64,000 nt of DNA from an uncultured Planctomycetaceae bacterium. GTDB taxonomy: Bacteria > Planctomycetota > Phycisphaerae > SM23-33. Each line of letters begins with the position of its first letter. Position 1 is the first letter of the stretch. Shown in pieces: positions 47,361 through 55,841 of this stretch. Made by a program: the position numbers and the translations under genes. The notes under the pieces are model-generated. The model had not been told where the DNA came from. It did not search any database and saw only the letters and a program-made list of their open reading frames with translations. Location of the stretch: NCBI GenBank assembly GCA_964427875.1, contig CAYRVX010000028.1, positions 387-64,386 on the forward strand. The letters run 5' to 3'.

Positions 47361-50030
47361 ATGGCGAACGTCACATACGACGACCGCAGTTTAATGGTGG
47401 ATGGCGAACGGATCTGGCTAGTCAGCGGCTCGATGCACTACTTCCGCCTTCCGTCGGCCTTGTGGAGAGATCGGCTGCTGAAGGCCAAGCGCGGAGGCCT
47501 GAACTGCATCTCCACGTACGTGGCCTGGAACTACCATGAGCCGGTCGAGGGCCAGTGGGAGACCTCCGGCGACAGAGACGTGGCGGCTTTCGTTCGTCTT
47601 GCGGAGGAGCTGGGTCTCTACGTGATCCTCCGTCCCGGCCCGTATATCTGCGCCGACTGGGATTTCGGGGGGCTGCCTTCCTGGTTGACGAGCAAGACCG
47701 GCGTGGTGTACCGCACCAGCAGTGCCGCATACAGCCACTATTTCGACAAGTACTTCCGACAGATGCTGCCGCAACTGGCCGACCAGCAGGTCAGCCGCGG
47801 CGGCAACATCATCCTGATTCAGAACGAAAACGGCTACTACATGACCACGATGCCGGATCGCCTGAATCACCTGGAGTTCATCAGCCAGTTGTTCAGGCGA
47901 AGCGGCTTTGAAATCCCCATCATCAACTGCAATCAGTTCTCCGATCCGCCCTTGCCGGACAGCATCGAGTGCGTTTGCGGCGGCCAGGACACGGTCCAGC
48001 GGCTCAAGCGCCTGCGTCTGCGCCAGTCGGGCGCGCCGCAGATGGCCATCGAGTTCTATACCGGCCGATTCGATGCCTGGGGCGGCGAGCATCATACCGC
48101 CGACGCCCGCGACACGGCCCGCAGGGCCATGGAGATCCTCGGCTGCGGCTCTCAGCTCAACTACTACATGTACCACGGCGGGACGAACTTCGGCTTCTGG
48201 GGCAGCCGCCTGAGCGACTCGGATGCCTCCTACGAGACCACCAGCTATGACTACGACGCCCCGCTGGCCGAAGGCGGCGGGCTCACCGAGAAGTACTACC
48301 TGACCCGCCTGGCAAATATGCTCGGGAACTACATGGGCCCGTTCCTGGCCCCCTGCATTGCGCCGATGCCGGCCGTCACCGTGCACGACTCGACGGCCGT
48401 GATGACTCTTACCGGTCCGGCGGGGTCGTGGGCGTTTGCGACCAACAACGGCCGCAGCGAGATCGATACGGCGCGGATCTGCCTGCCGCGAGGCGGGGAG
48501 CTGACGATTCCCCTGGGGACCCTCGGTGCCGCGGCAGTGCCGTTTGACCTGCAATTGGGGCCGAACAGGATGCTCGAGCGGGCCAACCTGACGCCGCTGG
48601 GTCTCTTCGGCGACAGCGTGTTGGTGTTTCACGGTCCCCCCGGCTGGAAGGCATGTATTCGGATCAACGGCCGGGAGCTTCGCGCCGCGGTGCCCGCGGG
48701 CGACGAGCCCGTGATCATCGAATTCGAGGATCTCCGGGTCGTGCTGGTAAGCAGTGATCTCGCCACGCGGACCTGGTTTGTGGAAGATACGCTCGTGTTC
48801 GGGCCGAGCTTCGTCGGCGAGACCCTGGAGGATATCAGGCACCATCGCGGCGCAAGGCAATGCGCCCTGCTGCCGCTGGGAGGCAAGCTGACGCACAGGA
48901 AGGCGGCCCCCGGCGGCAGGTCCTCCGCCCGGGCGGCGCCGAAGCTGAAGCCCTGGAAACGCGTCAGCGTATGCACCGAGCCTGTTTCCGCCGATCTCGA
49001 GTGGCAGCCGGTGGAGAGGCCTTGCGACGCCGACAAGCTCGGCGTCCACCACGGCTACATCTGGCACCGGCTGGAGTGGTCTGAGCCGAAGGCCCACAAA
49101 CGCAACCTGTTCCTGCCGGACTGCGAGGACCGCGCGACGGTCTACCTCAACGGCTCCCTGCTGGGAATATGGGGCCGAAGTGAGGACGCCTCCCGCCAGC
49201 CCATGCCCGCCTCCGTCAAGCGGGACCGGAACGTCCTGATCCTGCTGGTGGACAACCTCGGCCGAGTCGCTTCCGGCTGGCGATTGGGCGGAGCGAAGGG
49301 CCTGTTCGGCCACGTGTACGACGCCAAGGGCCTGCGGATTCGCCGGCCGAAACTCAAGCAACTGGAGAAGTTCCCGCGACGGATCGTGCCGCGAGGGCTG
49401 TCCCACCTCATCGACTCGCTGGAGTCCCTGCCTGTCTGGTCGCTGGACGTGGACCTTTCGCTGTCGGAAGTCTCGCCCGTGCACCTGTCGTTCACCGACG
49501 TGCCGTATCACGTGGCGGTGCTCTGCAACGACCGGACGGTGGGCTTCTTCCCCTGCAACGGGCGGAACTTCGGCGACCTCACTCTCGCCGCCGGCCTCCG
49601 GAAGGGCAAGAACCTCCTGCGACTGCTGATATGGGGAGACGTCGAGGCGAGTGTGGCGGAGAAGATCCAGTTCCACAGCCTCCTGAGCGCGATCTCCCAG
49701 GAGGCGACCGGGAGCTATCGGACGTGGCAGATGCCCACTCCCGGCGGACCCGTCGTCGGCAAGGACCAGCCGGCCTGGTACGCCTCGCGTTTCACGTATC
49801 AGCCGCAGGATCGCCCGCTGTTCGCACACATCGCCGGCGCGAGAAAGGGGCAGTTGTTCATCAACGGCCGCAACGCCGGACGATTCTGGACCGTCGGCCC
49901 TCAGCAGTACTACTACCTTCCGGAGTGCTGGCTGGCAGAAGACAACGAGCTGCTTCTCTTCGTCGAGCAGGGCGACCTGCCGCGTCGGACGCGCCTGGAG
50001 TTTCGTCCGCTCGGCCCGTACCGCGAGTAG
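47361..50030 (+). CDS. Glycoside hydrolase family 35 beta-galactosidase
   Basis: 'VSGSMHYFRLP...LNCISTYVAWNYHEP...DWDFGGLP' and 'IILIQNENGYY', which carries the catalytic acid/base NEN motif. 889 aa. Confidence 0.85.
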   Translation: MANVTYDDRSLMVDGERIWLVSGSMHYFRLPSALWRDRLLKAKRGGLNCISTYVAWNYHEPVEGQWETSGDRDVAAFVRLAEELGLYVILRPGPYICADWDFGGLPSWLTSKTGVVYRTSSAAYSHYFDKYFRQMLPQLADQQVSRGGNIILIQNENGYYMTTMPDRLNHLEFISQLFRRSGFEIPIINCNQFSDPPLPDSIECVCGGQDTVQRLKRLRLRQSGAPQMAIEFYTGRFDAWGGEHHTADARDTARRAMEILGCGSQLNYYMYHGGTNFGFWGSRLSDSDASYETTSYDYDAPLAEGGGLTEKYYLTRLANMLGNYMGPFLAPCIAPMPAVTVHDSTAVMTLTGPAGSWAFATNNGRSEIDTARICLPRGGELTIPLGTLGAAAVPFDLQLGPNRMLERANLTPLGLFGDSVLVFHGPPGWKACIRINGRELRAAVPAGDEPVIIEFEDLRVVLVSSDLATRTWFVEDTLVFGPSFVGETLEDIRHHRGARQCALLPLGGKLTHRKAAPGGRSSARAAPKLKPWKRVSVCTEPVSADLEWQPVERPCDADKLGVHHGYIWHRLEWSEPKAHKRNLFLPDCEDRATVYLNGSLLGIWGRSEDASRQPMPASVKRDRNVLILLVDNLGRVASGWRLGGAKGLFGHVYDAKGLRIRRPKLKQLEKFPRRIVPRGLSHLIDSLESLPVWSLDVDLSLSEVSPVHLSFTDVPYHVAVLCNDRTVGFFPCNGRNFGDLTLAAGLRKGKNLLRLLIWGDVEASVAEKIQFHSLLSAISQEATGSYRTWQMPTPGGPVVGKDQPAWYASRFTYQPQDRPLFAHIAGARKGQLFINGRNAGRFWTVGPQQYYYLPECWLAEDNELLLFVEQGDLPRRTRLEFRPLGPYRE

Positions 50031-50247
50031 AGGCTCACCGAGCGACGGCAGCGGTCCGGCCGAGGGGGCGACAGAACCGCCGCGGCTTTTCGCTTGAACT
50101 TCTGCGGAATTTTTGCTTGCTTGCCGTGATTCCGTCAACTAGGATAAGTTGCGGTGGCAGGATGGTTTCCTGCATTTCTTCGTCCGGGATCGACTAACGG
50201 ACCCGTTTTCATAACCGTCAAGCCGCGTCGTTGTGAAAGGGATCTTA

Positions 50248-50562
50248 ATGGCTACCGTGACCAAGAAGGAACTGGTGGACCGCATCGCCGACCAGACCGA
50301 CACCAAGCGGGTGGTCGTCAAGAAGATTGTCCAGGGCTTCCTCAATGAGATCATCAACGAGCTCGGCCGGGGCAATCGTCTTGAGTTTCGGGACTTCGGC
50401 GTCTTCGAGACGAAGGAGCGAGCCGCCCGCATCGCGCAGAACCCCAAGACGCTCCAGCGCGTCGAGGTCCCGCCGAAGAGGACGGTGAAGTTCAAGGTCG
50501 GCCGCCTTATGAAGATCAAGCTACAGGAAGGCTTGGCGAGAGATCAGGGCCTCCTGCCGTGA
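50248..50562 (+). CDS. HU/IHF-family DNA-binding protein
   Basis: 'MATVTKKELVDRIA..' plus 'RDFGVFETKERAARIAQNPKT...VPPKRTVKFK'. RBS AAGGGA 8 nt upstream. AT-richer leader. Confidence 0.8.
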   Translation: MATVTKKELVDRIADQTDTKRVVVKKIVQGFLNEIINELGRGNRLEFRDFGVFETKERAARIAQNPKTLQRVEVPPKRTVKFKVGRLMKIKLQEGLARDQGLLP

Positions 50563-50675
50563 GGCACTGCTCATCCCGCGCCTCCCGTGGTGTGAGCCTT
50601 TAACCGGACGTCCAGACCACCCCGGATACGCTGCTTACCGGCCCCGACGACCTCGCGAGAGGAACCCTACACACC

Positions 50676-50700
50676 GTCGCGGCGGAAACGCCCGCGACGG
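50676..50700 (+). promoter_or_regulatory. 8-bp stem / 9-nt loop hairpin (cgtcgcgg-cggaaacgc-ccgcgacg) about 20 nt upstream of the pduS-like start
   Basis: Read directly from the sequence. Function unknown. Confidence 0.25.
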
Positions 50701-50719
50701 CACTGATATACCAAGCGCC

Positions 50720-52051
50720 ATGGGCAGGGCGACGATCGAACAGATTGCTGCCGCCGGTGTTGTGGGCGCCGGGGGGGCCGGGTTTCCCACGCACGTCAAG
50801 CTCTCCGCCGAGGCCGACACCGTCCTGATCAACGCGGCCGAATGCGAGCCCCTGCTGCACAAGGACAAGGAGATCCTGCGCAGCTTCCCCGACGAGGTGC
50901 TCGCCGGGCTGGCGATCGCCATCGAGCTCCTCGGCGCCGAACGGGGAATCGTGGGCGTCAAGGCCAAGTACGCCGGCGTCATCGAAACGCTTCGCGGCAA
51001 GCTCGCGGGCAACATGGACGTCGCGCCCCTCCGCGACGCCTACCCCGCCGGCGACGAGCTCATTCTCGTCTACGACGTCCTCGGGCGCGTCGTCCCGCCG
51101 GGCGGCATCCCCCTGCACGTGGGCGCGGTGGTCATGAACGTGGAGACGGCCTTGAACGTGGCCGGCGCCGCCGACGGCCCCGTCACAAGGACGTTTCTGA
51201 CGGTCGCCGGGGCCGTCGCCAGCCCGGTAACGCTCCGCGTGCCGGTGGGCGCGTCGATCTCCGCGTGCGTGGCCGCCGCGGGCGGGCCCACGTGCCCGAC
51301 GCCCAATTACCTCGTCGGCGGCGTGATGATGGGCTACCTCGAAGACGACCACGACGCGCCCGTGGACAAGACCACCGGGGGCATCGTCGTCCTGCCGGAC
51401 GAGCACGTGGTCGTCCGCCGGCGCCGGCAGGACTGGAAGCAGATCGCCCGCATCGGCCGCAGCGCCTGCGACCAGTGCAGCTTCTGCACCGAGTTGTGCC
51501 CGCGCTGGCTGCTGGGTCACCCGATCGAGCCGCACCGGGCCATGCGGTCGCTGGGGTTCAATCTCGTCGGCGAGGCGAACGTGCGCGGCACGGCCTACTG
51601 CTGCGAGTGCAACCTGTGCAGCCTCTACTCCTGCCCGGAGGACCTCGACCCGAAGAACGTCTGCACGCAGAACAAGCGGCGGCTGGCCGCCGAGGGCGCC
51701 GCGTGGCAGGACCCGCCGTTCAACGAGCGCCGAGCCGAGCTGCACCTGAACGACCGCAAGGCCCCCATGAGGCGGCTGATGCAGAAGCTCGGCCTGACGG
51801 GCTTCGACAACGTCGGCCCGCTGGTTGACGCGGACGTCGCGGCCGAGAGGGTCGGCATCAGGCTCAAGCAGCACGTCGGCGCCCCGTGCGAGCCGGCGGT
51901 TCAGGTCGGCCGGAAGGTCGCCGAGGGCGACGTGGTCGCCCGGCCGCCCGTCATCGACGGCAAGCCCGCGCTCGGCGCGGCGGTTCACGCGTCGATCGAC
52001 GGCGAAGTCGCCGCCATCGAAGACGGCATCGTGTGGATCGAGAAGAGATAG
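50720..52051 (+). CDS. pduS: PduS-like cobalamin reductase / RnfC-family flavoprotein with two [4Fe-4S] clusters
   Basis: N-terminal 'GVVGAGGAGFPTHVKL' (RnfC/PduS NAD(H)-binding signature), SLBB-type middle, 'CDQCSFCTELCP' and 'CCECNLCSLYSCP' clusters. 443 aa. Confidence 0.75.
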   Translation: MGRATIEQIAAAGVVGAGGAGFPTHVKLSAEADTVLINAAECEPLLHKDKEILRSFPDEVLAGLAIAIELLGAERGIVGVKAKYAGVIETLRGKLAGNMDVAPLRDAYPAGDELILVYDVLGRVVPPGGIPLHVGAVVMNVETALNVAGAADGPVTRTFLTVAGAVASPVTLRVPVGASISACVAAAGGPTCPTPNYLVGGVMMGYLEDDHDAPVDKTTGGIVVLPDEHVVVRRRRQDWKQIARIGRSACDQCSFCTELCPRWLLGHPIEPHRAMRSLGFNLVGEANVRGTAYCCECNLCSLYSCPEDLDPKNVCTQNKRRLAAEGAAWQDPPFNERRAELHLNDRKAPMRRLMQKLGLTGFDNVGPLVDADVAAERVGIRLKQHVGAPCEPAVQVGRKVAEGDVVARPPVIDGKPALGAAVHASIDGEVAAIEDGIVWIEKR

Positions 52052-52074
52052 CCCCAACAGGACGGTCCGAGCAA

Positions 52075-52635
52075 ATGGCTACACCGAGATCGATTGGCGC
52101 GATCGAGCTTTCCAGCGTGGCGGTGGGCTACCGGGTCCAGGACGCCATGCTCGACGCCGCGGCCGTGGAAATCCTCATCGCCAGGACGATCTGCTCCGGC
52201 AAGTACTTCATCGTCGTCGGCGGTTCGGTCAGCGACGTGAAGGCCGCCGTCGCCGCGGCCCTTCGGGCCGGCGACGAGGCCGTCATCGACCACCTCGTGA
52301 TCCCCAACGTGCACGAGTCGGTCTTCCCCGCGCTTGGCCAGTCGGTCGTGATCGACGAGGACGAGGTCGGCGCGCTCGGCGTGGTGGAGACGTTCAGCGG
52401 CGTGAGCATCGTTGCCGCCGCCGACGCCGCCGCCAAGGCCGCCCGCGTCAAGCTGTTCCGCATCCACGTGGCCATGGCGCTGGGGGGCAAGGGCTTCTGC
52501 CTGATGACCGGCACCGTCGCCGACTGCCGCGCCGGCGTAGCCGCCGCCGCCGCCGAGGCCCGCCAGCGCGGCCTGCTCGTCGCCGAAGTCGTCATCCCCC
52601 GCCCCAACCGAGAACTGTTCAGCGAGTATATCTGA
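52075..52635 (+). CDS. pduT: PduT-like tandem-BMC-domain (BMC-T) microcompartment shell protein with the conserved Fe-S-ligand Cys
   Basis: Two BMC domains. 'IGAIELSSVAVGYRVQDAMLDAAAVEILIARTICSGKYFIVVGG' parallels Salmonella PduT '[44 protein letters not shown]'. C-terminal 'VIPRPNRELF' matches 'VIPRPHEAMW'. Confidence 0.8.
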   Translation: MATPRSIGAIELSSVAVGYRVQDAMLDAAAVEILIARTICSGKYFIVVGGSVSDVKAAVAAALRAGDEAVIDHLVIPNVHESVFPALGQSVVIDEDEVGALGVVETFSGVSIVAAADAAAKAARVKLFRIHVAMALGGKGFCLMTGTVADCRAGVAAAAAEARQRGLLVAEVVIPRPNRELFSEYI

Positions 52636-52707
52636 GGACGTTTCGCCGCTGCACCTGGGAATGGCCGGTCCGGGGAAATGAGGTATAATACGGGGCAGGG
52701 ACCGACA

Positions 52708-53196
52708 ATGCGCAAGCTGCACCTATACATCGAGACGTCCGTCTGGTCGCACTGGTACGCAGATGACACGCCCGAGCGGCGAGATGAGACAAGAGCCTTC
52801 CTCCGACGGTGTGCCGCTGCGCCGGATGACGTCGTCCTATACATAAGTCGCGCCGTTCTCGACGAGCTCGCGGCGACACCTGCAGAGCGAGGTGAGCAAT
52901 TGCTGGGGCTTGTGACGGAGTTCGATCCTGTTGTAGTCGAAAGCAGCAGCGAGGCGGATGATCTGGCAGCAGCGTACCTATCCCACGGCGCCATGCCCCC
53001 GGGCTCGCTTGTGGACGCCATGCACGCTGCTCTTGCGACCGTCCACGGCGTGGACGTGCTGGTGAGCTGGAACTGCCGTCACCTGGCCAATCTGTCTCGC
53101 AGGCGCAAGATCAACGCGGTGAACGCGGTCATGGGATATGCCGGCAACTTGGACATACTGACACCAATGGAGATCTTCGAAGATGCCCATCAGTGA
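52708..53196 (+). CDS. PIN-domain (VapC-like) ribonuclease toxin candidate
   Basis: 'KLHLYIETSVW' (acidic residue 1 at the strand end), 'LVDAMHAALA' (third Asp), 'SWNCRHLANL' (NxRHF-type C-terminal motif). RBS AGGGA. 162 aa. Confidence 0.6.
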   Translation: MRKLHLYIETSVWSHWYADDTPERRDETRAFLRRCAAAPDDVVLYISRAVLDELAATPAERGEQLLGLVTEFDPVVVESSSEADDLAAAYLSHGAMPPGSLVDAMHAALATVHGVDVLVSWNCRHLANLSRRRKINAVNAVMGYAGNLDILTPMEIFEDAHQ

Positions 53197-53389
53197 AGTA
53201 CAGCGCGAGGTCTGGCGAATCCGAAAGGAGCTGGACCGGAGGCTCGCGAAGATGACTCCCGAGCAGCGAACGGCACACTTCCGCGGGGTCTTCGACCGCA
53301 TCGAGGCCAAGTTCGGAATGAGGCTGAAGCTGAGACGGGCCCAGCCGGGGCAGCGGAGCCCCATCATCGCGGACCCTCCTCAGGAATAG
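53183..53389 (+). CDS. Small conserved protein, paralog 1 (candidate antitoxin/partner of the PIN protein)
   Basis: 68 aa. Overlaps the PIN stop by 14 nt. 'EVWRIRKELDRRLAKMTPEQ...KFGMRLKLR' shares about 45% identity with paralog 2. Confidence 0.5.
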   Translation: MPISEVQREVWRIRKELDRRLAKMTPEQRTAHFRGVFDRIEAKFGMRLKLRRAQPGQRSPIIADPPQE

Positions 53390-53505
53390 CCGCGCAGTAT
53401 CGGCGCGGCCGAGCTCTCCGACCGGCGGTCCTGTGCGGCGGGTCATCGTCTGGCAGGACAACGCGGCAAATGGATCAGCCGGACACCCAGATCGCTTGAC
53501 TGACG

Positions 53506-53703
53506 ATGAGCTACAGCAAGAGACAGATTGAGGTCTGGAAGGCCAGAGAGGAACTCGACAGGAAGCTGGCCGACATGACGCCACAGGAGATCATCGAGTA
53601 CGCCGATGGGGCCCTGGAACGTGCGCGTGCCCGGACCGGGAGACAACTGAAGCTGAGGGTCGCCGATGCCTCCCCGGACACAGCAGTCGAGGCGAATCAG
53701 TAG
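53506..53703 (+). CDS. Small conserved protein, paralog 2 (candidate antitoxin/partner of the HEPN protein)
   Basis: 65 aa. 'EVWKAREELDRKLADMTPQE...RTGRQLKLR'. Its stop TAG overlaps the GTG start of the next gene (TAGTG). Confidence 0.5.
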   Translation: MSYSKRQIEVWKAREELDRKLADMTPQEIIEYADGALERARARTGRQLKLRVADASPDTAVEANQ

Positions 53704-54989
53704 TGGCCCCGTCGCGTGAACAAGGCTCCGAGGTCTCCGTTTGGCCGCTGCTTTACCTGCGCGCGAACTGGGCCGGCCCGATGATCGACTGCTTCGACCT
53801 GGGTGTGAAGCTGATTCGCGCAGATTCGGAAACGCTCGCCAGGATGAAGGACATCGTGGGCCCCAACGCCAGGTTCCCAGGCCACTATGTGTTCGACAGT
53901 GATGTTCAGTGGCTCCTGGCGATCCCTGTCGCGCAGGAGGTCCAGTACGCCAACAGCGCGAAGCTGGGCATCTCGACACGGGAAGAAGTTGCTCGTGCGC
54001 TGGTGGACACGTTCCTGCTCTCTCTCCGGCTGGTTCGGCAAACGGCCGCAGTCTGTCCCGTATGGTTCGGCGCCAAGGTTGATCAGAACGGGTTGCACAC
54101 GCCGCTCGACTCAGACAGAACCAAGGACTACGAAGACCCGTGGTTGGACTGGGATCCGGGAAGGGAGTTCGGGGGGGAGACCTTGGAGGAAGGCGAGCTT
54201 GAGGCCACCGAGACGTTTGAAGAAGGCGACCTTGGGTCGATCGCTGACCTCTGGGACCGTCTGGTGCATTCCTTCTCACTGAAGGGCTTTCTTACCCAGG
54301 CGCACACGGAGATGTTCTGGCAAGAGATCGACAGGAGGGCAACTGGCGAGGCGGACGACTGGTTCCGGGCGCGCAGCCCAGCGATATCGGCCGACCCCGG
54401 CTTGGCCGAGCCGATGGTCTCTGTCTTGCGGCAAGACCAAGTGTGGCAACAGCGGCATTCTGAGGCATTCAGGAACACGCTCAGGGCCCGCCTCGACGAG
54501 ATATTCCTCCGCGCAACGCGGATCGGTAGGGCATTGGGGCTCTTCAACGAGGCATTCGGCTCCCATCCGGTAGGCGCCTTTCTGCTCATGTGCTTCGCCC
54601 TTGAGACGCTCTTCACCGTGGAGAAACCAAGTAACAGAAGGGGCATCACGTGCAAGTTGAAGAGGAGAGCGGCAGAGCTGCTCCGTCCCGGAGGGCAGGC
54701 TGGTAAACCCAAGGAGGTGAAGGACAAGGTAGGTCGCATCCTGAAGGAACGAGGCGATCTCGTCCATGGCAGCAAGCGGATGGATTGCGTACCTGAAAAG
54801 ACGCAGAGGGAGGCGGTTGACCTTACCCGCTTGAGTCTCCGGACCGTGCTGTCTCGGCCTGAGCTGCTGAAGCTTTACTGCGATCCCTCTACGTCAGCCA
54901 CACCCGGAAAGAAGGAAGACGTGGGCGGGTTGAGGGAGTTCTTCCGCAAGTTGGACGGTGGTGCAGGATGTTCCGGTGAAGGAAAGTGA
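53703..54989 (+). CDS. Large protein with a C-terminal HEPN (Abi/Apea-like) domain; N-terminal ~300 aa of unknown function
   Basis: C-terminus 'AFLLMCFALETLFTVEK...KRRAAELL...ILKERGDLVHGSKR' gives the HEPN Rx4H motif. GTG start coupled to the upstream small ORF. Confidence 0.5.
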   Translation: MAPSREQGSEVSVWPLLYLRANWAGPMIDCFDLGVKLIRADSETLARMKDIVGPNARFPGHYVFDSDVQWLLAIPVAQEVQYANSAKLGISTREEVARALVDTFLLSLRLVRQTAAVCPVWFGAKVDQNGLHTPLDSDRTKDYEDPWLDWDPGREFGGETLEEGELEATETFEEGDLGSIADLWDRLVHSFSLKGFLTQAHTEMFWQEIDRRATGEADDWFRARSPAISADPGLAEPMVSVLRQDQVWQQRHSEAFRNTLRARLDEIFLRATRIGRALGLFNEAFGSHPVGAFLLMCFALETLFTVEKPSNRRGITCKLKRRAAELLRPGGQAGKPKEVKDKVGRILKERGDLVHGSKRMDCVPEKTQREAVDLTRLSLRTVLSRPELLKLYCDPSTSATPGKKEDVGGLREFFRKLDGGAGCSGEGK

Positions 54990-55088
54990 AGATGGATGAA
55001 GACACCGTCGGCGTGCCTGCCCGGACGCGCGTCTCATCACGGCAGCGTGGTGGGTCGCAACGCGCGGGCGCACTTGTGGGTTGAGAAC

Positions 55089-55841
55089 ATGCGACTCAAG
55101 CAATTCATTCTGACATCCTCGATGGGCAAGCGGTTGATCGGTAAGGGCGTGGCGGCGCATCCGGTGATCCGGGACGTGCTGGAGTCCGGCACGCTGGTGA
55201 TCGTGGCCGGCACGACGAACGGGTACGTGGCCGAGGAGATCCTCGCCGCCACGGGGCAGCAGGAGGGCTTCACGCGCAAGGGCTTTCGCCGCGGCGTGAC
55301 CGTCCCGCCGGGCAAGAAGGCGCCGCAGGCGGAGTTCACCGGCGACGTGGTCCTGGTAAAGGGCGCCTGGCAGAAGGGCAAGGAGATCTTCGACGTCGCC
55401 GACGACCTCAAGGCCGGCGACGTAGTGCTCAAGGGCGCCAACGCGCTCAGCGCCGACCTGGGCCGGGCGGCCGTGCTGATCGGCCATCCGCAGGCCGGCA
55501 CCATCGGGGCGGCCCTGCCGGCCGTGCTCGGGCGGCGCGTCCGCCTGATCATCCCCGTCGGCCTCGAGAAGCGGATCTGCGACGACCTCGACCAGATCGC
55601 CGCGGAGATCAACGCCCCCGAGGCCGAGGGGCCGCGGCTGCTGCCGATGCCCGGCGAGCCGTTCACCGAGCTCGACGCGATCGAGCTGCTCTCCGACGCG
55701 GAGGCATTCCTCGTCGCCGCCGGCGGCATCTGCGGCGCCGAGGGCGCCGTCTGGGTCGCCGTCCGGGGCAGCGACCGGCAGGTGGCCGCGGCAGAAGAGA
55801 TCATCGCCTCCGTCGCCGACGAGCCGCCTTGCGAGGCGTAG
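55089..55841 (+). CDS. Hypothetical protein (Gly/Ala-rich alpha/beta; '[15 protein letters not shown]', '[11 protein letters not shown]')
   Basis: 250-aa ORF from ATG 55089. No family recognised from sequence alone. Confidence 0.35.

Follow-up and report, generated by a model that had tools for sequence, protein, structure and literature searches.

How should a run of four bacterial genes be read in which two different RNase-type effectors stand next to one another, each adjoined by a member of the same family of very small proteins? The question is raised by a locus in the DNA of an uncultured Planctomycetaceae bacterium (GTDB lineage Bacteria; Planctomycetota; Phycisphaerae; SM23-33), which we analysed as a window of 64,000 nucleotides (nt) (GenBank assembly GCA_964427875.1, contig CAYRVX010000028.1, positions 387 to 64,386 of the forward strand; positions given below are those of the window). 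At 52708-54989, on the plus strand, the gene of a VapC-like PIN-domain protein is followed by a first small gene (small1), a spacer, a second small gene (small2) and the gene of a 428-residue protein whose C-terminal part resembles HEPN domains; we refer to this segment as the cassette and to the last gene as the large gene. The initial annotation of the cassette had taken it for two back-to-back RNase-toxin modules, in each of which one member of a new small-protein family serves its own effector. The reading that we favour, with a confidence somewhat better than even, is that two independent elements of conflict type make up the segment and share one chromosomal slot.

Results

The PIN gene (162 residues) occupies 52708-53196. 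A second in-frame ATG lies upstream of it, at 52678; we set the start at 52708 because homologues begin at the position of the MRKLHLYIETS motif. The gene for small1 (68 residues; 53183-53389) starts inside the 3' end of the PIN gene, a 14-nt overlap that takes in the PIN stop. A spacer of 116 nt (53390-53505) leads to small2 (65 residues; 53506-53703), whose TAG stop ends on the G (53703) with which the GTG start of the large gene (53703-54989) begins, giving the sequence TAGTG. This GTG start is supported because the first ~25 residues of the protein (..VSVWPLLYL.A.W) are kept in homologues. The four genes are co-oriented with tight junctions, and the 14-nt overlap, the 116-nt gap and the TAGTG overlap all stand as they were first described.

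The PIN gene and its overlapping small partner occur together well beyond the window. A metagenome scan with an alignment of the PIN family confirmed 368 PIN relatives, and 80 loci were kept, of which 77 were analysed. At about 70 of these 77, an open reading frame (ORF) of 44-84 residues lies 3' of the PIN gene and overlaps its stop by 8-26 nt. The more distant PIN homologues, at 31-43% identity, are set in other, unrelated gene neighbourhoods, again with an overlapping ORF of 58-63 residues downstream and no large gene. The pair is also found directly after the replication-initiator gene of the Leptospira interrogans plasmid pLiSL47, where the Prokaryotic Genome Annotation Pipeline (PGAP) labels the PIN protein 'VapC family toxin' and the partner 'hypothetical', on the Thiodictyon plasmid pTs485, where the partner is unannotated, and on an IMG/VR viral contig; none of the INPHARED phage genomes carries the PIN. 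The pair is co-oriented and translationally coupled in varied contexts that include mobile elements, a general trait of type II toxin-antitoxin (TA) systems, and it is an autonomous, widespread module. We infer that the PIN protein is probably a toxin and that the small protein is probably the antitoxin that neutralises it.

The window PIN protein scores 33.8 bits against Pfam PF01850 (cut-off 23.6) over residues 7-118, which upholds its assignment as VapC-like. None of the NCBIfam VapC models reaches its cut-off on the protein, and a sequence search of the Protein Data Bank (PDB) with the PIN protein alone returned only noise. The fold was approached through the homologue P0190, a natural fusion whose PIN part is 52% identical to the window PIN. 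In its AlphaFold2 (AF2) model the predicted local distance difference test (pLDDT) score of the PIN domain is ~95, and Foldseek matches the model to VapC/PIN structures (probability 1.0, target-normalised TM-score (TMt) 0.60-0.73), with PcrIIC1, AF1683 and M. tuberculosis VapCs at the top. The best of these matches, slightly above the classical VapC toxins, is PcrIIC1 (8wmm_G, TMt 0.73), a Cas9-associated 'pro-CRISPR' factor.

Across the family alignment, E9, E53, D103, N122, R124 and H125 are conserved, with E9 replaced by Asp in one member (P0207). The active-site positions were taken from motifs rather than from a superposition; on this assignment the fourth canonical acidic PIN position is Asn122 throughout the family, within an invariant S-W-N-x-R-H motif. 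Catalysis by the PIN protein is plausible but not assured. The family also has a conserved C-terminal extension of ~35 residues (..GY...L.I.TP.E..).

The two small proteins are paralogues, as first noticed, with an identity of 41% (26 of 64 positions, gap-free; BLASTP E 2e-15) in place of the ~45% first estimated. The view that they belong to an uncharacterised family also stands: 20 small proteins were scanned and none scored above the cut-off of a Pfam or NCBIfam model, PADLOC has no match for small1 or small2, and a single member of the family, from a Phycisphaerae metagenome-assembled genome (MAG), is named at NCBI. The small genes are real, as judged from the 35 protein clusters that make up the family and from the ratio of nonsynonymous to synonymous divergence (dN/dS) of 0.12-0.28 between orthologues, which indicates purifying selection. 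They diverge fast. A conservative iterative search with hidden Markov models (HMMs) failed to join them, pairwise phmmer comparison placed 65 of 79 small ORFs in one cluster, and another cluster of 10 was joined to it by hhalign at 85% probability. The small part of the P0190 model consists of two helices (residues 5-22 and 26-44), and many small proteins have basic C-terminal tails. Natural fusions with the PIN occur in both orders, as small::PIN in P0190, P0192 and P0200 and as PIN::small in P0183 (two samples); these two orientations are the one indirect indication that the partner may bind and neutralise the PIN.

Some of these features would also suit a different role, in which the small protein assists an atypical and possibly non-toxic PIN as a positive subunit or cofactor, perhaps a helix pair that binds or targets RNA, so that the pair would be a domesticated housekeeping RNase and not a TA system. 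The fusions in both orientations, the Asn at the fourth acidic position and the basic tails are in its favour, as are the vertical inheritance and stable synteny of the locus. Against it stand the occurrence of the pair on a viral contig and next to the rep gene of a plasmid, the very rapid divergence of the partner, as in conflict systems, and the patchy presence of the pair in unrelated neighbourhoods. On balance we consider a cofactor role rather unlikely.

To which PIN, then, does each small protein of the cassette belong? PIN identity and small-protein identity co-vary across loci. Partners of the 'WRIR' type, to which small1 belongs, pair with window-type and L038-type PINs: they follow, or are fused to, PINs of the window clade (P0183/L116) and of L038. 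Partners of the 'WKAR' type, the main type, to which small2 and the single small gene of the relatives belong, pair with L001/L014-type PINs. small2 is orthologous to that single small gene, and its first 45 residues are 98% identical to those encoded by the small gene after the L014-type PIN.

The gene arrangements bear on the same question. Most close relatives have the order PIN-small-large. Their one small gene starts 14-26 nt before the end of the PIN gene and directly adjoins the large gene. Two small genes are found in three forms only. The first is that of the window's own lineage (L013, identical in sequence). In the second (L014/15/30/32), a small1-type gene is fused upstream of the PIN, and small2 and a 90-residue stump of the large gene follow. 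In the third (L116/117, two independent samples), a PIN::small1 fusion is followed by a small2-type ORF and a conserved 250-residue gene, with no large gene. The sequences make small1 the probable cognate, antitoxin-like partner of the window PIN. We read small2 as a second PIN partner because the small ORF tracks the PIN, the HEPN gene stands alone elsewhere and the layout with two small genes exists where there is no HEPN gene; its most likely role is that of a spare or auxiliary partner of PIN type, and not that of antitoxin to the HEPN protein.

The spacer between the two small genes begins with a GC-rich hairpin (53390-53408, CCGCGC-agtatcg-GCGCGG; -14.7 kcal/mol for the surrounding 40 nt). 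One of its frames reads ..NAANGSAGHPDRLTD DELQQETD and then a stop (pattern ..NAAN..AG...RL..DELQQETD), resembling the C termini of L-type PINs. The spacer may be the decayed 3' end of a missing PIN type, which is suggestive only and not established statistically: in the shuffle test the remnant reached only 30-66 of 2000, with control frames scoring about the same.

A recent tandem DNA duplication as the origin of small1 and small2 was considered and rejected. Their DNA similarity amounts to only 70% over 53 nt, and the two copies fall into different clades that pair with different PIN clades.

The 428-residue protein is of another kind. In its AF2 model (pLDDT 87.7, predicted TM-score (pTM) 0.89), an alpha/beta domain at the N terminus (~1-135) is joined by an acidic, disordered linker (~136-172) to a helical C-terminal region, in which the HEPN-like core spans residues ~268-392 (54504-54878) and the HEPN motif region is helical. 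In 69 homologues, conservation reaches 90% or more at positions R273, R276, A277, F293, L300, E301, L303, R322, R350, H355 and G356. These include the motif R350-x4-H355-G356 (ERGDLVHG, 54750-54770) and, in the helix TRIGRAL..F...FALETLF, the residue E301 (ALETLF, 54603-54605).

Direct Pfam, NCBIfam and PADLOC scans of the protein gave nothing above cut-off, and its relation to ApeA emerges from profiles of the large family: A4 for the window family, A1 and A3 for close and mid-range members, and A5 for 52 distant members. By hhalign, A4 matches A5 at 99.95% probability (E 1.7e-37), and A5 in turn matches the solved ApeA proteins (Ec4ApeA 9.4e-6, Ec2ApeA 1.4e-4, Ec3ApeA 1.7e-4, Ec1ApeA 5.5e-4, Thr1 0.019). 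The match consists of two segments, a helix ..rALeff...ALEaL and the stretch YklRSkiVHG, which stands opposite IYRTRNLIVH of Ec2ApeA. By residue counting, the Arg of this Ec2ApeA segment is R502, the residue mutated in the ApeA catalytic mutant (bioRxiv 10.64898/2026.01.26.701840). PDB sequence searches with A1 or A3 gave noise, save weak Csx1-Crn2 matches near the RxxxxH region. The Pfam family HEPN_Apea has sub-threshold matches in 5 of the 69 homologues, HEPN_RiboL-PSP matches one distant member at 5.2e-6, alongside weak Csx1/Csm6 matches, and PADLOC found few weak matches among the 52 distant homologues, none of them ApeA.

The Abi/Apea-like Rx4H motif that had been proposed for the C terminus is borne out by the conservation of R350 and H355 and by the alignment of A5 to ApeA. 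HMM scans had been suggested for both effectors: the PIN passed directly, and the HEPN part has no direct Pfam match and is linked to its family by profile through distant homologues only. We take the 428-residue protein to carry a domain that distantly resembles the HEPN domain of ApeA and that may cleave RNA.

An exhaustive profile search gave 138 representative homologue clusters of the large family. Close relatives (50-56% identity) are confined to eight 90%-identity clusters in a collection of 5.8 billion proteins, and all nine genome loci of the family lie in Planctomycetota MAGs or in an unclassified MAG. At L019-L022, L024 and L025 the large gene stands solo among housekeeping genes (arg genes, rsfS/argS), with no PIN, no small ORF and no room upstream for one. 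Just 3' of the solo large gene of L019 (5403-6760) lie three nucleotidyltransferase-like small ORFs and one HEPN-like one, as judged by inspection; if they are MNT/HepT-type pairs, the locus may harbour a small islet of defence or TA genes. On an IMG/VR viral contig (L115:2342-3730), a homologue of the large protein with 35% identity is encoded between terminase-like and portal-like genes, labels that come from a reading of the ORFs, and it looks like a phage-borne moron copy; no small ORF was called beside it.

A comparison of the window with L014 reveals that the cassette is a mosaic. The flanking genes have 81-90% nucleotide identity, the PIN region cannot be aligned as DNA, the PIN proteins being 52% identical, and identity is 94.6% over small2 and the 225 nt at the start of the large gene. 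Synonymous divergence between the two is 0.023 for small2 and 0.245 for the neighbouring gene of a bacterial microcompartment (BMC) shell protein. The large gene is dispensable: it has decayed on several independent occasions, to the 90-residue stump of L014/15/30/32 and to stubs of 44-83 residues in L016/17, L033 and L039, and PIN-small is intact throughout. The simplest account of these sequences would be that two diverged PIN-small modules once stood in tandem, or that one displaced the PIN of the other, after which PINs were lost in a lineage-specific manner and orphan partners were kept.

In L033, where the large gene is an 83-residue stub, a pair of ORFs of 509-575 residues (L033:1178-2905) appears transposase-like by eye. 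If the pair is a transposase, the large gene of that lineage may have been lost to an insertion sequence.

With these distributions in hand, the initial proposal can be weighed, according to which the cassette consists of two back-to-back TA or abortive-infection (Abi) modules, the PIN going with small1, and small2 serving the HEPN protein alone as its antitoxin or adaptor. It draws on the TAGTG overlap between small2 and the large gene, on the equally tight junctions of relatives (an 8-nt overlap in L001, a 10-nt gap in L005, TAATG in L012) and on the near identity of the block of small2 and the large-gene 5' end in the window and L014, though their PINs differ. But the large family is solo at six loci and on the phage contig, the small family accompanies PINs at ~70 loci, and an ORF of the small2 type is retained in L014, with its truncated large gene, and in L116, which lacks that gene altogether. 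In most relatives, moreover, only one small gene is present, overlapping the PIN, and ApeA-type HEPN proteins act alone. We regard such a pair of modules as unlikely. The claim that each effector is partnered by one member of the small family is not supported, on the same facts. The opposite gene orders, toxin first and partner first, are a by-product of adjacency. Of the proposed modular defence unit there remain two RNase-type effectors and an unassigned small family, arranged in three layers instead of two symmetric modules.

Co-orientation and tight junctions also imply one transcript, and the order PIN-small-large is kept in several genomes whose large proteins are 50-56% identical. Both are consistent with a three-component system, in which the small protein is a shared regulator or adaptor linking the PIN to HEPN activation, or in which the HEPN protein senses for the TA pair or backs it up as an effector. 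We find this decidedly unlikely, however, since each part is widespread without the others, the large gene has been lost repeatedly with PIN-small left intact, and PIN alleles swap independently of small2 and the large gene. No likelier is the reading in which the small hairpin family is a portable inhibitor or adaptor for two unrelated RNase folds, with small2 co-opted as a gate on the ApeA-like HEPN protein or as a coupling of PIN activity to it, which, if true, would make the cassette a tripartite, cross-wired unit of RNase defence and its small proteins an antitoxin family not described before.

The composite that we prefer to these readings occupies a well-defined slot. The cassette sits between the BMC shell gene and the conserved 250-residue gene, and on every contig that carries a member of the eight clusters of close large-protein relatives the genes 5' of it encode a GH35 glycosidase, an HU protein, an RnfC-like protein and the BMC shell protein. 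In the window (47361-52635) and in L001, L005, L013 and L014, these are a GH35 beta-galactosidase, an HU-like protein, an RnfC/PduS-like Fe-S flavoprotein and a 186-residue BMC-domain shell protein, which places the putative toxin/defence islet within an apparent microcompartment-associated operon. Downstream, on the opposite strand, lies the gene of a 1137-residue protein with PKD, cadherin and HemolysinCabind domains. The GC content of the cassette (0.58-0.64) is lower than that of its flanks (0.67-0.75). A promoter/terminator scan of the region found nothing beyond shuffle expectation, and an inverted-repeat search found no operator-like repeat.

Three further observations concern the edges of the cassette. 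First, a perfect TATAAT lies at 52685-52690, 17 nt 5' of the PIN start codon, in a genome of ~70% GC; it has no matching -35 hexamer, the consensus scan did not report it, and if it is used the leader of the PIN mRNA would be very short. Second, in one relative (L001-L004, e.g. L001:6001-7974) the large gene has no stop and runs in frame into the homologue of the downstream gene, giving the 657-residue protein P0003. Fusions of the P0003 type occur on 10 contigs from several samples, and the counterpart of the downstream gene (250-281 residues) in the window lies at 54996-55841. Third, the small2-type ORF of L116 likewise runs without a stop into the 250-residue gene. The 250-residue protein matches no Pfam family.

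Discussion

The sequences establish the gene structures, the links between families, the statistics of pairing, the fusions, the solo loci of the large family and the mosaic history, from which toxicity, neutralisation and RNA cleavage are inferred. If the cassette is the composite proposed here, its first element would be a toxin-first PIN module. The toxin would be a VapC-like RNase whose active site has an unusual make-up (E9/E53/D103/N122, with H125 in addition), and its gene would be coupled in translation to the downstream gene of a helical-hairpin protein of ~60-70 residues. The small protein would bind the PIN and most likely inhibit it, and, by analogy with VapB/FitA, conserved basic or aromatic residues of its first helix may reach the acidic pocket of the PIN. 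small2 would be a second partner gene, probably remaining after a second PIN was lost or replaced, and possibly retained as an extra neutraliser or anti-addiction factor. The second element would be a stand-alone sensor-plus-HEPN RNase of 428 residues, distantly ApeA-like, which would inhibit itself until a trigger activates RNA cleavage, in the manner of abortive infection, and which would need no small antitoxin. ApeA is a single-protein, auto-inhibited HEPN anti-phage defence that is activated by a ligand and cleaves tRNA anticodon loops, and as such it provides a working model for the 428-residue protein acting without an antitoxin.

Several observations weigh against this composite. First, the small and large genes abut throughout the lineage, with stop and start overlapping or nearly so, and small2 has moved together with the 5' block of the large gene; both are compatible with a functional link between the two. 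Second, the synteny of the cassette is kept between genomes that have diverged fairly far, a pattern not usual in selfish TA loci. Third, the Asn in place of the fourth acid in the whole PIN family leaves nuclease activity unassured. Fourth, the small domain of the P0190 fusion is modelled with only moderate confidence (pLDDT 61-75, pTM 0.73), and the binding and neutralisation of the PIN by small1 or small2 are predictions. Finally, the HEPN link runs through profiles of intermediate sequences, and a Foldseek search of the PDB with the full 428-residue model returned nothing with E < 0.2 and no ApeA chains.

Among known systems, the PIN-small pair is closest in kind to VapBC. As in VapBC, a PIN protein above the Pfam cut-off, with a VapC-like fold (as modelled for the homologue), has a small, tightly coupled partner, and the likeness extends to the adjacency to a plasmid rep gene and to the name 'VapC family toxin' that PGAP gives to plasmid homologues. 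The gene order, in contrast, is reversed: the partner lies downstream and overlaps the toxin stop, and the gene upstream encodes the BMC shell protein. The partner also differs, being a helical hairpin of ~60 residues with no recognisable AbrB, ribbon-helix-helix (RHH), Phd or helix-turn-helix (HTH) DNA-binding domain, as does the PIN itself, which has an Asn for the fourth acid followed by the conserved R-H, and the ~35-residue C-terminal extension. Toxin-first type II systems are familiar from HigBA, MqsRA and HicAB, and fused toxin-antitoxins from, for example, the CapRel type. The window pair resembles these, by comparison from general knowledge, in its toxin-first coupling and its natural fusions, but the toxins of HigBA, MqsRA and HicAB have other folds and their antitoxins a defined DNA-binding domain, whereas the partner family here is unassigned.

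The 428-residue protein shares with ApeA a C-terminal HEPN-like domain, with a helix-1 motif (..ALE.L) and a Y..R[SN]..VH motif that align to Ec1-4ApeA, and a multi-domain plan with N-terminal non-catalytic domains; genes of its family also occur in stand-alone form. ApeA is built of an N-terminal domain, a Mid domain and a split HEPN domain, in ~550-620 residues (bioRxiv 10.64898/2026.01.26.701840). The window protein does not follow this three-domain plan, having an alpha/beta N-domain and an acidic linker; it is shorter, its sequence match to ApeA is confined to the HEPN helices, and it has no PADLOC match of any kind and none to Pfam HEPN_Apea.

In general terms, the region is ordinary in kind and built of unnamed families. 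Current ideas are not overturned by it, and its value lies in annotation and in tractable experiments. What is new is a PIN clade with a fixed order, toxin first and tiny helical partner second, that has hundreds of metagenomic members and extends to Leptospira plasmids. Its partner is left 'hypothetical' by current libraries and pipelines, so that the pair is missed in censuses of TA and defence systems. A second addition, to the ApeA-like HEPN effectors, is a family centred on the Planctomycetota that includes a phage-borne copy. Finally, the loci with one or two partners, with fusions in both orders and with swapped PIN alleles make up a natural series in which cognate specificity and the retention of orphan antitoxins can be followed.

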